DNA of 64,000 nucleotides, from assembly GCF_054482595.1 (NCBI RefSeq), contig NZ_CM137008.1. The stretch is one strand, 5' to 3'. The notes beneath the pieces were generated by a model, which was not told where the DNA came from, searched no databases, and saw only the letters and a program-made list of their open reading frames with translations. This document shows, piece after piece, positions 19,074 to 55,600 of the stretch (the first letter of the stretch is position 1; each line of letters opens with the position of its first letter). The position numbers and the translations under genes are program-made.

Positions 19074-20000
19074 ATGAATTATTCTTTAAAACAATTAAAG
19101 GTTTTCGTCACAGTAGCGCAGGAGAAAAGTTTTAGTCGTGCAGGAGAGCGTATCGGCCTGAGCCAGTCGGCAGTAAGTCACAGTGTGAAGGAGCTGGAAA
19201 ATCATACTGGTGTTCGCCTGCTGGACAGAACCACGCGTGAAGTGGTGCTTACAGATGCAGGGCAGCAGTTGGCTTTGCGTCTTGAGCGACTGCTGGATGA
19301 ACTTAACAGCACGTTGCGCGATACCGGGCGTATGGGGCAACAACTGAGCGGAAAAGTTCGGGTCGCTGCCAGCCAGACCATTTCCGCGCATCTTATTCCG
19401 CAATGCATTGCTGAAAGCCATCGCCGCTATCCAGATATTCAGTTTGTCCTGCACGATCGTCCGCAGCAGTGGGTGATGGAAAGTATTCGCCAGGGAGATG
19501 TCGACTTTGGCATCGTCATCGATCCAGGCCCAGTGGGCGATCTGCAATGTGAAGCGATTCTTTCCGAGCCTTTCTTTCTGCTTTGCCATCGGGATAGCGC
19601 TTTGGCCGCGGAAGATTATGTACCCTGGCAGGCATTACAGGGAGCGAAATTGGTGTTGCAGGATTACGCGTCAGGCAGCCGACCGCTGATTGACGCAGCG
19701 CTGGCGCGCAATGGTATTCAGGCGAATATTGTGCAGGAGATTGGACATCCGGCGACGCTATTCCCGATGGTAGCCGCAGGCATCGGCATCAGTATTCTTC
19801 CCGCACTGGCGCTACCATTGCCTGAAGGTAGCCCGCTGGTGGTAAAGCGCATTACGCCGGTTGTTGAACGCCAGTTGATGCTGGTGCGCAGGAAGAACCG
19901 TTCACTTTCCACCGCCGCTGAAGCGTTATGGGACGTGGTACGAGACCAGGGCAATGCGCTAATGGCTGGGCGGGAAGGGGATCCGTTGTATCAGATATAG
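19074..20000 (+). CDS. yfeR: LysR-family transcriptional regulator
   Basis: 308 aa; N-terminal HTH ([32 protein letters not shown]); divergent from yfeH. Confidence 0.9.
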
Positions 20001-20332
20001 ATATCGATATGAGTCGTTTTTTCAACAGGATTTAGAAGGGATACATTCAGAGACAAACGCTGCTCTTTTTCCTGCGCCTTTTCTGCCTGCTGTCTCTGCA
20101 ACTGCGCCAGTTGTGTTTCCAGTAGGGTGATTTGCTGTTGAATCAATTCGGCCTGTTTTTGTTTGTCTTCAGCACTGCCGCTAGTGTCTACAATCTCTTT
20201 AATTTGTTGAGTGAGTTTGATGATTTGCTGACTTATCCGCGCGATTTGTGAAGCAACATCGCTACCTTGTGATGCCATGTTACTACTCTGTGTTTGTATG
20301 GAAGGAATTGAAGTTGAAGAGATAGTGGCCAT
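19991..20332 (-). CDS. FlxA-like coiled-coil protein (Q/L-rich heptad region), hypothetical
   Basis: 113-aa ORF with GAGGA RBS 7 nt upstream of ATG; S/T-rich N-terminus, coiled-coil core ([13 protein letters not shown]...[25 protein letters not shown]), hydrophobic C-terminus IDIYI; resemblance to prophage FlxA is from memory; 3' end overlaps yfeR by 10 nt. Confidence 0.6.
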
Positions 20333-20408
20333 TGTTCAGTCCTCGTCACTGTACGAGGTAATATCGGTAGAAGAACAAGGAACTTGAGAAGAAAAATCAA
20401 TCTTACAA

Positions 20409-20469
20409 ATCGCAGATAGCAAAAAAGCGCCTTTAGGGCGCTTTTTTACATTGGTGGGTCGTGCAGGAT
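20409..20469 (-). repeat. Distal copy of a 61-bp direct repeat: lysV 3'-terminal 18 nt plus downstream terminator (att-like scar)
   Basis: Identical to 20565..20625; contains tRNA-Lys 3' end (revcomp ATCCTGCACGACCCACCA) and the hairpin aaaagcgccctaaaggcgctttttt. Confidence 0.85.
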
Positions 20470-20564
20470 GACTCGCTTCGCTCGCCCTTCGGGCCGTCGC
20501 CGCGAGCGGCTCCGTTGTTTCGCTGCGCTCAACTCGAACCTGCTGCAGGTTCGAATCTTTGAGT

Positions 20565-20625
20565 ATCGCAGATAGCAAAAAAGCGCCTTTAGGGCGCTTT
20601 TTTACATTGGTGGGTCGTGCAGGAT
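20565..20625 (-). repeat. Proximal copy of the 61-bp direct repeat (overlaps the 3' end of intact lysV and its terminator)
   Basis: Exact 61/61 match to 20409..20469. Confidence 0.85.
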
Positions 20626-20683
20626 TCGAACCTGCGACCAATTGATTAAAAGTCAACTGCTCTACCAACTGAGCTAACGACCC
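20608..20683 (-). tRNA. lysV: tRNA-Lys (anticodon UUU)
   Basis: Reverse complement reads GGGTCGTTAGCTCAGTTGGTAGAGCAGTTGACTTTTAATCAATTGGTCGCAGGTTCGAATCCTGCACGACCCACCA. Confidence 0.97.
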
Positions 20684-20687
20684 GAAG

Positions 20688-20763
20688 TGGTGGGTGATGA
20701 CGGGATCGAACCGCCGACCCCCTCCTTGTAAGGGAGGTGCTCTCCCAGCTGAGCTAATCACCC
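20688..20763 (-). tRNA. valY: tRNA-Val (anticodon UAC)
   Basis: Reverse complement reads GGGTGATTAGCTCAGCTGGGAGAGCACCTCCCTTACAAGGAGGGGGTCGGCGGTTCGATCCCGTCATCACCCACCA; 4-nt spacer to lysV. Confidence 0.97.
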
Positions 20764-20809
20764 ACTTCGGTACTTCACATTGTTACAAGAAATTTAGCTG
20801 GCGAGAAAG

Positions 20810-20885
20810 TGGTGGGTGATGACGGGATCGAACCGCCGACCCCCTCCTTGTAAGGGAGGTGCTCTCCCAGCTGAGCTAATCACCC
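20810..20885 (-). tRNA. valX: tRNA-Val (anticodon UAC)
   Basis: Identical 76-nt tRNA-Val copy. Confidence 0.97.
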
Positions 20886-20929
20886 ACTTCTCAATTTCTT
20901 GCTACACGGCGGAGACTACATAAAGTAGT

Positions 20930-21005
20930 TGGTGGGTGATGACGGGATCGAACCGCCGACCCCCTCCTTGTAAGGGAGGTGCTCTCCCAGCTGAGCTAAT
21001 CACCC
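20930..21005 (-). tRNA. valU: tRNA-Val (anticodon UAC)
   Basis: Identical 76-nt tRNA-Val copy; first gene of the tRNA operon. Confidence 0.97.
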
Positions 21006-52616: not shown

Positions 52617-55600
52617 TTAGTCATTTTGCTGACAGAAAACAGCAATCTCCTGGTCCAGCTCTGCAATGTGTTCTTTTACAGAGTTCAGCAACTGAAGAAT
52701 TTCAGGCTTACTGTCATCTGAAACAGGTGTTATTTCTAACTGATGGCTAATATTAATCAACTTTTGCAAATTCAGGATGTTAGCCGCACCGTGGATGCGA
52801 TGAATACATTGATGGAAAGTTCTGTTATCGCCAGCTTCTAGTGCATGAAACGCAGCGGGTAGATCTTTATGCGTTTCATGCTGGAAAGTCATGAGAATCT
52901 CCTGCATCAGTTGTAGATCGTTCGCCGTATTATTTTTCAGGGCTTCGATATCAAGGTGGCGATACTGAGGTGCAATATGCGCAACCTGGTGTAACTGACT
53001 TAAATGTGTTTTCAGTACATCCAGGGTCAACGGTTTGAACAAACATAAGTTCATGCCGCAATTTAACCCTTTTTCACGTTCGTTAGCCTGTGCGTTGGCT
53101 GTAAGCCCCCAGATGGGTAAGGAAGAATTTTGCTCACGGAGTTTGCGAGTCAACTCAAAACCATCCATATTCGGCATATTAACGTCAGTAATAAGCAGAT
53201 CATAATGTTGCATACTGACTTTGTGTAGCGCTTGCACACCATCAGTGGCTTCATCAACATCATATCCTAATAGATTTAGCTGGCGTTTGAGTAATAGCCT
53301 GTTGGTCGGATGATCATCCGCGATTAATATGCTCAACTTTTCAGGTAGTGTGATGGGTTGTTCTGCTTTTGCCTCGACAGTCGCCACTTGTTGGATAATT
53401 TCTACCGGGATTGTGATCGTAAATGTTGTTCCTATGCCTGGATGACTTTCTAATGACAAATCACCCTGCATGTTTTTAATTAATTCTTTGCAGATCATTA
53501 AGCCTAAACCAGAACCTGTTTGCTGACGACCTGCACTTGTTTGGCTATAGCGTTTAAACAGTTGTTGTTGTTCTTCCTGCGATAATCCACTTCCAGAATC
53601 CATAATCGTCATTTTGATTACAGCGTGGTTGTCATCAATGTGAACCAGGGAGGTCGTAATTTTTACTGCCCCCTCGGTGGTAAATTTGAGAGCATTACTC
53701 AGTAAATTTGATAAGACCTGCTTAAACGCCTGAGGGTCGATCTTAACCAGGTAATGTTCAGGAAACGTACTGCTGCAACTTAATGCGATCGATTTGCTTG
53801 CAGCAATCGCACCGAAAGAGTGACAAGTGTTCTGGACTAAAGTAGGGATATCGACCCATTGTGGTTGAAGTTGATAGTTACCCGATTCAATTTTGTCGAC
53901 ATCAAGGATTTCACCAATTAAGCCGAGGAGTGATTGTCCGGTGGCGTAGGCAAGTGAAATCGCCTCCACCCGTTGCTCCTTGCTAAGACCAGAACCCGAC
54001 AGAAGTTCCAGGAAGCCCATAATGGAGCTTATTGGTGTTCTTATTTCGTGACTCATTGTTGCCAGAAACTGACTTTTTGCGACAGTTGCATTGATCGCTT
54101 TATTTCTCTCTACTTCGAGTGCATGAATTAAATCACGCGTCTCGGTAATATCTTGCCAACCACAAATATAAACAGCATGATCGCTGGCTGGCAGATTGCA
54201 TAATGTATGCCAGTGATTAATGCATCTTTTCTCGATGCCATTATCAATTTCAAATACCTGTGTGTATATTGTTCGATTTTCTTTCGTTTCTGCTGTGACT
54301 TCATGCGCATTAGAAAAAACATCTTTAAAGGGTGATTCACTGTTTTCTAATGGCAACATTGCATTTTTGTAGTAATCAGCAGTGAAATAATGTTCAAATG
54401 CACTATTGTGACTAATGACATTACCTTGCCAGTTTACAACATAAGTTGGATTCGGTAAGGAGTCCGAGAGCGCTTTCCGGAATGATATTTGGTTTTCTAA
54501 ATCACCCTGAATGACTTTACGACGACGAACTGAGCGTAACAGGTAGAATCCCCATAAAAGGCTACTGCCAACTAATAAAACGGATAATGTCGTAACAATA
54601 TAAAATTGCTCGCTATAGAGGTCCCATGTGTCAATGGTCACATTGGGCATTTTAATCCATTTTTCGGTCAGGCGCAGAACTTCGCTTGGGGGGATTGCAT
54701 TCAGTGCTTTATTAATAATATCCTTAAGTTCCGGTTCTCCGCGAGGAAAAGCGAACGAAAGCGATGCATTCGGAACGCCGGGAATAAGAAAATGATACAG
54801 TTCATTAGGATAGTAATGGTCGATCATGTAACGCGAATTTAACTGTGTCGCGACCAGAGCATCAAGTTCGCCTTCCTTGACCTTGTGAAATGCAGCGCTG
54901 GCGTTATCGACTTTTATCCACTCTACCTCCGGATACATCTCTTTTAATTGCGAATGAAGCTCATAATAATATGGAATGGCAACTTTCATTCCTTTTTTTA
55001 ATGTTTGTTCACTGTCAGGCGCTTTTTGCATGACAAAAACGTAAGGCGTTGTTATGAAGGCTTCAGCAAATAAAACATTATTTTCTCTATCTTCACTATA
55101 AATAGCACCGGGTAATATATCCCATCCGCCGGGATTCAGCTGTGTTCCAGCATGGATATTGTGTGAAACGGTGATCGGAGAAAAATTTAAACCTGTTTGC
55201 AAAGTAATAATATTAAGAATATCCCCCATAACGCCCCGAACCGAGCCATTTTCATCCGTCATAGAATAGGGAGGGGAGTAAGGATTTTCCAGCACCTTTA
55301 AATCGGGATGCTGCTTAATCCATTGTTTTTCATGTTCAGTGAGTTCTAATGGTTTGTTCAGAAAGGCCAGGTTTCCTGTATCAAGCCAATTTTGTGATAC
55401 TTCATAGCGAACTTCATTTGTCAAAGCATCAACAAATCGATTGAGTACTTCATTAAGAACGACAGATTCTTTTCTGGTCAAGAAAAAATTATATTGACGC
55501 GGTGAGTTATAATATTTCACTACATTTAAGGAGTGAGTGAAATAGCGGGAAATCATACTGCTGGTAATGATGTTACTACCAATAAAGTAATCATTCTGTC

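Follow-up and report, generated by a model that had tools for sequence, protein, structure and literature searches.

We found that the interval between yfeR and lysV holds an intact gene of the FlxA family that probably is an ancestral chromosomal resident, carried by one of two alternative haplotypes of this site, driven by σ28 and encoding a coiled-coil accessory protein. In the window (the whole stretch of 64,000 nucleotides analysed), the minus strand carries the gene at positions 19991-20332, stop codon included, as defined from the list of open reading frames and the Pfam FlxA match; its product of 113 residues begins with MATISS and ends with HIDIYI. A Shine-Dalgarno sequence, GAGGA (20340-20344, minus strand), was read from the sequence 7 nt before the ATG, and the orthologues have one at the corresponding position. 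The gene is convergent with yfeR, which codes for a LysR-type regulator (19074-20000, plus strand), and the two 3' ends overlap by 10 nt; frame, ribosome-binding site and overlap were all described correctly in an earlier note on this DNA. Upstream and in the same orientation lies the tRNA-Lys(UUU) gene lysV (20608-20683, minus strand; identified by ARAGORN, with an Rfam tRNA score of 79.2 bits), the last gene of a tRNA operon, and the annotation of strain XH990 gives the neighbours of the gene as ligA, ypeB, yfeH, yfeR, tRNAs and gltX. The last element of this valU-valX-valY-lysV operon is a palindromic, terminator-like hairpin, AAAAAAGCGCC-TTTA-GGGCGCTTTTTT (20421-20447, unstranded), with U-tracts in both directions, which our simple terminator scan did not list. 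The earlier note had treated the gene as unannotated, but RefSeq had already named the identical gene of strain XH990 'FlxA-like family protein' (WP_001625605.1), and the O157 Sakai equivalent, ECs_3279, is there named flxA. The gene is an ordinary, previously annotated member of a family to which no function has so far been assigned, and a search of a literature library found no paper naming 'FlxA-like', ECs3279, WP_000201407 or WP_001625605.

Profile and pairwise searches agreed with the family identity that had been proposed from the coiled-coil pattern. Specifically, residues 15-92 matched positions 4-82 of the 101 positions of the Pfam FlxA model (PF14282; E = 3.6e-14, 53.2 bits), 28 out of 28 aligned relatives matched the same model at E ≤ 0.001, and BLASTP against K-12 FlxA gave 43% identity over 74 residues (E = 3e-12); the NCBIfam search returned no specific model. 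The protein has the features of the family, namely a length of 113 residues, a predicted central two-helix coiled coil and a C-terminal (I/V)D(I/V)Y(I/V). The C-terminal IDIYI, correctly taken by the earlier note for a family motif, recurred in the alignment of relatives as (Q)IDIYI, with Y112 shared by 90% or more of the sequences aligned, while the N-terminus is Ser/Thr-rich, predicted to be disordered and begins in the family with a conserved MTTI. The product is about 12 kDa, soluble and without a Sec signal. In the AlphaFold2 model, helices span residues 24-49 and 54-99 (pLDDT 77-88) and the tails fall below 50, suggesting an antiparallel two-helix coiled-coil hairpin with disordered tails; searches of solved structures and folds returned generic or designed coiled coils and nothing at E ≤ 0.001. 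A search of 1.84 billion cluster representatives gave 79 relatives, E ≤ 0.001 again being the threshold. Purifying selection acts on the protein between genera, with dN/dS values of 0.05 to 0.22, and since these low values are accompanied by conserved N- and C-terminal peptide motifs, it is the protein itself that is selected.

A candidate σ28 (FliA) promoter precedes the gene on the minus strand. Its -35 element, TCAAGTTC (20380-20387; consensus TAAAGTTT), is separated by a spacer of 11 nt from the -10 element, ACCGATAT (20361-20368; consensus GCCGATAA), which stops 28 nt short of the ATG. The first position of the -10 element is A in the present allele, where the consensus has G, and the O157 and Pseudocitrobacter alleles have GCCGATAT. 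The arrangement TCAAGTTC-N11-ACCGATAT (20387-20361) is the single occurrence of the degenerate pattern in the window, with 0.01 expected, and it gave the top score on both strands of the window with a FliA matrix made from the ChIP-seq FliA sites of PMC4183435. Since 13-14 of 50 shuffled windows contained a site scoring as high (15.4-15.8 bits), the motif by itself is not decisive, and position and conservation carry the argument. A GCCGATA-type -10 box was found to end 25-34 nt before the ATG in 35 of the 37 listed loci (counted with corrected start codons), 31 of the 37 had upstream matrix scores above the 95th percentile for random windows of 160 nt, and the -35 TCAAG is kept in most orthologues. 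In addition, a box of this type precedes relatives in unrelated contexts, including prophage, traI-adjacent and other loci (L043, L050, L052, L054 and L055). A FliA promoter, which the earlier note had proposed looking for upstream of the gene, is thus present and conserved at the level of sequence, as it is in the founding FlxA. We infer that the gene would be transcribed from this promoter in the present strain, most likely as a late gene of the flagellar regulon.

The stretch from the -10 element to the ATG contains an inverted repeat, CCTCGT-N6-ACGAGG (20341-20358, minus strand; RNAfold -8.6 kcal/mol), whose 3' arm holds the Shine-Dalgarno sequence and which is kept in two Pseudocitrobacter loci. 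The 'fold-back inhibition' of IS10 is a model for a 5' hairpin that would mask the Shine-Dalgarno sequence and silence read-through from the tRNA operon. As a family-wide device such a hairpin was rejected: over 33 orthologues the native duplexes had a mean of -3.84 versus -3.80 for cross-paired arms, and 2114 of 5000 permutations were as low as the native value. The duplex energies between the 5' arm and the Shine-Dalgarno sequence in these orthologues were about 1.4 sd below those of shuffled arms, and the 5' arm probably sits at or before the σ28 start site, which is predicted 7-9 nt past the -10 box, at about 20352-20354 (minus strand). From these sequence comparisons, the hairpin would be a local matter of E. 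coli and Pseudocitrobacter.

In the E. coli pangenome, the interval between yfeR and lysV comes in two haplotypes, which is nothing out of the ordinary. A segment of 404 bp (20002-20405) containing the flxA-like gene alternates with a 4.4-kb segment containing yfeN-xapA-xapB-DUF1427-xapR; homology to the xap-type genomes ends one base past the yfeR stop codon and restarts at about 20404, before the lysV terminator repeat. K-12 MG1655 has the order yfeR-yfeN-xapA-xapB-xapR-lysV without such an open reading frame, and L003 is arranged alike. The genome comparison confirmed that xapR-xapB-xapA-yfeN is present in K-12 and absent here, as the earlier note had stated, and K-12 does not carry the same gene at this position, a possibility that the note had raised against itself. 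The 404-bp segment was present in 1316 of 5426 complete E. coli genomes and the xap segment in 4099, so that the two are near-exclusive alternatives. The survey of flanking genes that had been proposed for Escherichia as a whole is answered by these counts for E. coli. Of the 1307 genomes with the full segment, all rows sampled showed the frame unbroken and annotated as coding. A search for remnants of the flxA-like gene in the K-12-type segment, or the reverse, gave chance words of 9-13 nt only. Three quarters of E. coli strains live without the flxA-like gene at this site. Strain HH97 (L005), considered as an intermediate with fragments of both haplotypes, carries 1.2 kb in which duplicated fragments are jumbled together with long stretches of poly-A; it was not used because this looks like an assembly artefact.

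A profile scan of genome contigs, with an alignment of nine sequences as the query, placed the gene in a conserved neighbourhood. The order ligA-yfeH-yfeR-gene-gltX was found in at least about 20 enterobacterial genera among the matches listed, and the gene lay between yfeR/yfeH/ligA and gltX in 34 of the 37 loci listed, from about 20 genera, its divergence running parallel to that of the flanking genes. The orthologues adjacent to yfeR in Pseudocitrobacter faecalis (81-82% identical) and Kluyvera (55-60%) have the same position, orientation and length, with promoter and Shine-Dalgarno spacing as in the E. coli gene. Most other genera have 'GVNxPS' before the IDIYI end, whereas E. coli and Pseudocitrobacter have another stretch of 11 letters there. 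Among the matches listed, the overlap with yfeR is restricted to Escherichia, Pseudocitrobacter and Kluyvera, the genes being apart in other genera. Unlike the alternation seen in E. coli, some yfeR-adjacent orthologues keep xapABR beside the gene, and at least four species among the matches listed (L019, L023, L026 and L038) have the flxA-like gene together with xapA-xapB-xapR. The comparison covers the listed loci, to the exclusion of Salmonella, Citrobacter, E. albertii and E. fergusonii as nearest outgroups; over this range, the gene would be the original occupant, in Enterobacteriaceae, of the interval from yfeR to lysV/gltX. Judged by gene order and selection, and by the searches for phage and integration traces described below, the chromosomal copy looks like an old resident and the K-12 prophage flxA like a mobile paralogue.

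Such residence bears on the suggestion, made in the earlier note, that the gene may be a remnant of mobile DNA. Spelled out, such a remnant would be a 'moron' of a prophage or island left at lysV after an integration and decay that removed xapRBA-yfeN. The idea has in its favour that K-12 flxA is located in the Qin prophage, that a close relative of K-12 FlxA adjoins traI on a conjugative element and that the protein matches phrog_11044 (E = 4e-8), as well as the G+C content of the 404-bp segment, 42.5% versus 51-57% in the flanks, and the duplication of a tRNA 3' end nearby. The G+C content suits a Q/K/I/T-rich coiled-coil gene with an AT-rich promoter and is by itself no sign of foreign DNA. 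The 'duplicated lysV end' was real, consisting of a 61-nt exact direct repeat (20409-20469 and 20565-20625), but as a sign of integration it did not stand, since the two copies enclose only the 95-nt spacer of an RtT repeat and not the open reading frame. The RtT repeat (Rfam RF00391; 20452-20577, minus strand) matched over the full model length with 51.6 bits versus a gathering score of 45 (E = 9e-9) and is annotated at this site by RefSeq as RtT sRNA; because it is present in xap-type genomes, yet absent from the ORF-bearing O157, it is unrelated to the replacement of the segment. The left junction, moreover, falls at the stop codon of yfeR and outside the tRNA, and the frame is not bracketed by att-like copies of the tRNA 3' end. 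The annotated neighbours include no integrase, phage or transfer genes, integrases and phage genes are absent within 6 kb, and a tblastn search of 50,697 phage records gave no match. With the same position in at least about 20 genera, a divergence parallel to that of the flanking genes, purifying selection, and the occurrence of the gene side by side with xapABR, an origin as a mobile remnant appears largely refuted by synteny, and we consider it highly improbable.

Two further explanations concern the E. coli locus itself. The locus might act through transcription, with a σ28-dependent antisense transcript running into yfeR and yfeR antisense running back, coupling the flagellar state to YfeR/YfeH. 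This would fit the 10-nt overlap of the 3' ends, the failure of the simple scan to find a terminator on either strand from 19600 to about 20420, the position of the sole hairpin with U-tracts on both sides at 20421-20447, 33 nt upstream of the -35 element, and the state of yfeR in O157, where it is a pseudogene. However, the dN/dS values and conserved terminal motifs argue for selection on the protein, the overlap has the narrow distribution given above for the matches listed, and family members distant from yfeR still have the promoter; we regard such interference as improbable. The other explanation is that of a spurious or decaying frame, arisen by chance in leftover intergenic DNA and functionless in E. 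coli, to which its absence from 76% of E. coli genomes and the presence of frameshifted (159-residue) and truncated (95-residue) variants of the protein in public assemblies might lend support. The O157 allele, in addition, has four amino-acid changes (4 non-synonymous versus 2 synonymous differences), one of which turns the conserved D of IDIYI into G, and hints, on the sequence, at relaxed constraint in some lineages. Against this stand the frame found intact and annotated throughout the rows sampled from the 1307 genomes, the Pfam match, the 79 relatives, the conserved motifs, the low dN/dS, and the conservation of promoter and Shine-Dalgarno sequence, so that the worry voiced in the earlier note, of a frame without homologues, is answered and a spurious origin deserves hardly any credence.

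The closest studied relative of the gene is K-12 flxA, which is FliA-dependent and whose product is reported to be dispensable for motility. K-12 FlxA (b1566, Qin prophage, PF14282) has 110 residues versus 113 here, belongs to the same Pfam family and has the same layout, with a Ser/Thr-rich N-terminus, a two-helix core and a C-terminal IDIY(I/V). Its promoter, TAAAGATT-N11-GCCGATAG, lies 26 nt upstream of the ATG, compared with 28 nt for the flxA-like gene. K-12 flxA belongs to a cryptic prophage and turns up in 1200 of 5426 genomes without regard to the yfeR-lysV locus, whereas the flxA-like gene is chromosomal and syntenic; strain ABW_A19 has both. The FliA dependence of K-12 flxA has been measured (PMC4183435, PMC1935009), deletion of fliA lowering its expression from 280 to 2 (PMC1935009).

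Other likenesses were less close. The C-terminal motif of the YjfB_motility family (PF14070), N-P-P-x-L-G-x-x-(I/V)-D-V-x-A, looks like the N-x-P-S-x3-Q-I-D-I-Y-I of FlxA, and yjfB of B. subtilis is σD-dependent. The YjfB proteins, annotated 'putative motility protein', are likewise small and so far without an assigned function, but they are half the size of FlxA and lack the long hairpin; homology was rejected, with an hhalign probability of 4.8% over 15 C-terminal columns only and none of the 28 relatives matching PF14070. The FliJ/CdsO-type hairpins of type III secretion and flagellar export are antiparallel two-helix coiled coils of similar length, a likeness of shape only: CdsO chains were among the top Foldseek matches (E = 0.27-0.85), amid ING4, LSD1, prefoldin and designed proteins, and these matches were not significant. 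One relative (P0064) gave a weak Flagellin_C match (E = 1.2e-4), and mimicry of flagellin or FliD was rejected when the FlxA family profile was compared with K-12 FliC and FliD (probability 0.1%). An anti-phage defence protein was also rejected, the best PADLOC match (E = 0.0013) being noise from coiled-coil parts of large proteins.

For the ancestral FlxA-family gene, we propose that completion of the hook-basal body would let FlgM exit the cell and so free FliA, which would transcribe the gene from its own σ28 promoter, as expected of a late (class 3) member of the flagellar regulon. The protein would work by protein-protein contacts, through self-association or with a flagellar or motility partner, and by analogy with K-12 FlxA it may have a role in motility as an accessory, not an essential, factor. 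A bolder and rather unlikely extension is that FlxA-like proteins are an overlooked ancient late-flagellar component, that K-12 lost the original and has the prophage flxA as a stand-in, and that the protein is exported or binds a chaperone, FliA or FlgM. Flagellar type III export or such binding would be compatible with the disordered N-terminus, the absence of a Sec signal and the expected class-3 timing.

The practical weight of these observations is small, since the gene was already annotated, the FlxA family has so far no assigned function and the two-haplotype site is ordinary. The RtT repeat, mistaken for a scar of integration at a tRNA end, serves as a cautionary example. Because K-12 lacks the chromosomal FlxA gene and has the prophage paralogue only, the regulon maps of K-12 miss a likely FliA target that O157:H7, B strains and about one E. 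coli strain in four carry. The σ28 promoter is kept across the FlxA family in all contexts examined, which would rank these genes among the uncharacterised ones that most consistently belong to the late flagellar regulon. Under the bolder and rather unlikely reading above, a σ28 promoter on every mobile copy, whether in a prophage or adjacent to traI, would mean that mobile elements exploit the motility state of the host, and the flxA-like protein may tune late assembly or motility.

We found that the flxA-like ORF (19991-20332, minus strand; ATG start, 113 codons) had been correctly located and described in the earlier note, as judged by re-reading the sequence and by an ORF listing. It is preceded by a Shine-Dalgarno sequence, GAGGA (20340-20344, minus strand), 7 nt 5' of the ATG, is convergent with yfeR (19074-20000, plus strand), with a 10-nt 3' overlap, and lies downstream of, and co-oriented with, the valU-valX-valY-lysV tRNA operon (20608-21005, minus strand), beyond which gltX occupies the opposite strand. 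The gene of E. coli strain XH990, 100% identical over 1 kb, is named 'FlxA-like family protein' in RefSeq (WP_001625605.1), and the equivalent gene of O157 Sakai, ECs_3279, carries the name flxA in its record; the gene is an annotated member of a known family of unknown function. In two O157:H7 loci (L002, 5375-6633, and L048, 5113-6371), an internal stop makes yfeR a pseudogene, and the flxA-like protein differs from that of the window at four residues, one of the differences being a D-to-G change in the conserved IDIYI end.

The protein matches Pfam FlxA (PF14282) over residues 15-92 (E 3.6e-14) and shares 43% identity over 74 residues with K-12 FlxA (BLASTP E 3e-12), bearing out the family guess for which the earlier note had proposed BLASTP/HHpred; its C-terminal IDIYI, also likened there to this family, corresponds to the (Q)IDIY(I/V) that ends family members in our alignments. 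No specific NCBIfam model was found for it, and in PHROGs it matched phrog_11044 (unknown function; E 4e-8). When 1.84 billion cluster representatives were searched exhaustively with phmmer, 79 relatives reached E <= 0.001, almost all of them 100-125 aa long, and Pfam FlxA was matched by all 28 aligned relatives. In the alignments, a conserved MTTI(S/Q/N) is followed by about 20 Ser/Thr/Gly-rich residues and two heptad-rich helices, the first being ASQIxRIxxQIxKLTQQLK, separated by a short G-S-x-E-E-K turn, and then by a variable linker, often with GVNxPS. AlphaFold2 (53-sequence alignment) modelled helices at 24-49 and 54-99, packed as an antiparallel hairpin (block pLDDT 77-88), with pLDDT below 50 at residues 1-22 and about 96-113. 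A Foldseek search of the PDB with this model returned generic hairpins only, none at E <= 0.001, and a profile search of PDB sequences returned designed antiparallel coiled coils; the predicted fold gives little indication of function, and fits a small self-associating or partner-binding protein. The tail of YjfB_motility, N-P-P-x-L-G-N-x-V-D-V-x-A, resembles the FlxA-family tail, N-x-P-S-x3-Q-I-D-I-Y-I (alignments A3 and A4), but hhalign paired only those 15 C-terminal columns (single-comparison E 0.008, probability 4.8%), so that homology was dropped; the likeness could be a common short motif or chance. Similarity to flagellin or FliD also failed as a lead, as did a defence role, for which PADLOC profiles gave coiled-coil noise only.

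In K-12 MG1655 the gene order is lysV-xapR-xapB-xapA-yfeN-yfeR, as in the xap-type E. coli strain L003, which agrees with the earlier statement that the ORF sits where K-12 has the xap genes and yfeN. Homology between the two haplotypes breaks one base past the yfeR stop codon (20001/20002) and returns at about 20404, directly before the lysV terminator repeat, and no recognisable trace of one segment was found inside the other in either direction. When the proposed survey was run on E. coli, the 404-bp flxA-like segment (20002-20405) was present in 1316 of 5426 complete genomes, with 1307 copies nearly full length (96.5-100% identity) and always chromosomal, and the 4.4-kb yfeN-xapA-xapB-DUF1427-xapR segment in 4099, a total of 5415, indicating that the two segments are almost mutually exclusive. 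The flxA-like segment occurs, among others, in O157:H7, O55:H7 and B-strain derivatives, and in many isolates from humans, animals and the environment. The xap segment (L003, 8303-12700) itself forms two deep allele classes in E. coli, identity being at least 99% in 2386 genomes and 90-95% (about 93%) in 1480. The flanking core genes diverge far less, which suggests an old polymorphism or import at this interval. Strain HH97 (L005, 6644-7860, NZ_CP116409.1) has a 1.2-kb scramble between yfeR and lysV, comprising duplicated, diverged fragments of the flxA-like gene and its promoter, a xapB-like piece and long stretches of poly-A; an assembly artefact or mixed sample seems a better reading than a third haplotype, and the strain was rejected as an evolutionary intermediate.

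To find relatives' loci, a single genome of each species was scanned. At least 37 loci encode relatives, those listed lying outside Salmonella, Citrobacter and the Escherichia species other than E. coli, and tblastn with neighbouring E. coli proteins recovered the order gltX ... flxA-like, yfeR, yfeH, ligA in almost all of the 37 listed, from Pseudocitrobacter, Kluyvera, Pluralibacter, Enterobacter, Leclercia, Lelliottia, Cedecea, Buttiauxella, Superficieibacter, Phytobacter, Atlantibacter, Kosakonia, Siccibacter and Pantoea, among others. Four of these, in Enterobacter asburiae (L019), E. soli (L023), Atlantibacter (L026) and Enterobacter sp. (L038), carry both the flxA-like gene and xapA-xapB-xapR, without yfeN; there xapA and the flxA-like gene point away from one common intergenic region that retains the CCAATACA(C/G)TTT repeat found 5' of xapA in K-12-type genomes, so that yfeN of the K-12 type occupies the exact place and orientation of the flxA-like gene. 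Identity is 81-88% in Pseudocitrobacter and 55-60% in Kluyvera, divergence parallels that of the neighbour genes, and dN/dS between genera is 0.05-0.22. For a MAG labelled Pseudocitrobacter sp. (L006), dS to the E. coli allele is 0.13, versus 0.61 for Pseudocitrobacter faecalis, with YfeR 96% identical; this may reflect a closer relative, mis-binning of the contig or a recent exchange affecting the locus.

We weighed several readings of the ORF. That it is a remnant of mobile DNA, as the earlier note had proposed, is contradicted by the synteny, the parallel divergence and the low dN/dS, by the lack of any match among 50,697 phage records (tblastn) and by the absence of an integrase or phage gene within 6 kb, and we consider it very improbable; the segment's G+C content of 42.5%, versus 51-57% in the flanks, fits a Gln/Lys/Ile/Thr-rich gene with an AT-rich promoter. 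The flxA-like gene is very likely an old chromosomal resident of the interval. K-12 flxA, which lies in the Qin prophage, occurs in 1200 of the 5426 genomes irrespective of this locus (one strain is in both lists), and we read it as a mobile paralogue. A main role in antisense coupling with yfeR would draw on the overlap of the two genes and on a simple scan that found no terminator between them, but selection acts on the protein and the overlap is confined to one clade, making this unlikely. We regard the ORF as almost certainly a real FlxA-family gene, and the chance of its being spurious as negligible.

The duplicated lysV end mentioned in the earlier note is real, as an exact 61-nt direct repeat (20409-20469 and 20565-20625, 156-nt spacing). 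Each copy consists of the terminator hairpin AAAAAAGCGCC-TTTA-GGGCGCTTTTTT and the final 18 nt of lysV, and the repeat with its 95-nt spacer matches Rfam RtT (20452-20577, 51.6 bits versus a gathering score of 45), RtT sRNA being the RefSeq label of this repeat. The unit was found in xap-type genomes too, once in the window and XH990, as two annotations in strain MLI023K1 and not at all in O157 AR-0429 and a B-strain derivative, both with the ORF; it is thus a tRNA-operon repeat of variable copy number, and no integration scar.

A putative sigma-28 promoter, for which the earlier note had proposed a search, was located on the coding (minus) strand 28 nt 5' of the ATG as TCAAGTTC (-35, 20387-20380; consensus TAAAGTTT), N11 and ACCGATAT (-10, 20368-20361; consensus GCCGATAA). 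A single match to the degenerate pattern TNAAGTT-N12-CCGATA exists in the 64-kb window, at this position (0.01 expected). With a weight matrix derived from FliA ChIP-seq sites (Fitzgerald et al. 2014; PMC4183435, Table 2), it had the top score of both strands (15.4-15.8 bits, inside the training-site range), although 13-14 of 50 shuffled windows also reached such a score at some point, so that the score alone is not decisive; position and conservation are what decide for the predicted promoter. The second-best match, TCAACTTCAACCACAATGGGTCGATATC (53847-53874, minus strand), is identical to the K-12 intragenic evgS ChIP-seq site (PMC4183435, Table 2) and, being part of the training set, is a mere consistency check. 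Of the 37 listed loci, 31 had a best upstream score above the 95th percentile for random 160-nt windows and 26 one above the 99th; with start codons corrected, a GCCGATA-type -10 box ended 25-34 nt before the MTTI start in 35, mostly preceded by TCAAG at the correct spacing. The first-position A of the window's -10 is the consensus G in the O157 (L002 and L048, GCCGATAT) and Pseudocitrobacter alleles, and ACCGATAA also occurs in ChIP-bound K-12 promoters such as ycgR and fliD (PMC4183435). Family members in unrelated contexts (L043, L050, L052, L054, L055) have the same -10 box, including L043, adjoining folB/plsY/rpoD (TCAAGTTT-N11-GACGATAA), and L052, between a chb-like operon and smpB. In L055 (4001-4321) and L056 (3074-3394), a close K-12 FlxA relative lies just 3' of traI and a scsC-like gene, a setting that looks like a conjugative element, with its own promoter, TAAGTTTT-N11-ACCGATAT, suggesting that mobile family copies retain sigma-28 control. 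Many Enterobacter-group orthologues (L017, L023, L030, L034, L042) share the motif TTTTATGGC(A/G)A(G/A)AGGA 5' of the MTTI start, which provides an in-frame ATG 6-9 codons before the family start, about 9 nt past the -10 box, and overlaps the Shine-Dalgarno sequence of the main start.

K-12 flxA has TAAAGATT-N11-GCCGATAG 26 nt before its ATG, versus 28 nt here; it is bound by FliA, deletion of fliA lowers its expression from 280 to 2 units (PMC4183435), and an independent study gave a 28-fold fall (PMC1935009). Based on promoter position, conservation and this parallel, transcription of the gene by FliA holoenzyme, as a late flagellar gene, is a strong inference, and we hold sigma-28 dependence of the gene to be very likely. 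Between the -10 box and the ATG, an inverted repeat, CCTCGT-N6-ACGAGG (20341-20358, minus strand; -8.6 kcal/mol), carries the Shine-Dalgarno sequence in its 3' arm and is retained in Pseudocitrobacter. A sigma-28 transcript would probably start inside or after the 5' arm, so that masking would affect read-through transcripts only; as a family-wide masking device the hairpin was not supported.

In the proposed model, FliA, freed upon hook-basal-body completion, would drive transcription from the gene's own promoter, which the terminator hairpin at 20421-20447 would insulate from the tRNA operon, and the 12-kDa hairpin protein would work through protein-protein contact during late assembly or the motility phase. 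K-12 FlxA is reported as 'dispensable for motility development' in work cited in PMC4183435, and by analogy the role of the protein is probably accessory; no single specific molecular role is likely. A speculative idea, drawn from the disordered conserved N-terminus, the class-3 timing and the absence of a Sec signal, is that the protein is exported via the flagellar type III apparatus or binds a chaperone of that apparatus. Its sequence has no hydrophobic leader. No paper dealing with this gene was found in the literature searched, and three modest inferences may therefore be new: the deep synteny of the locus, the retention of the sigma-28 promoter across the family, and the lack of the chromosomal copy in K-12.
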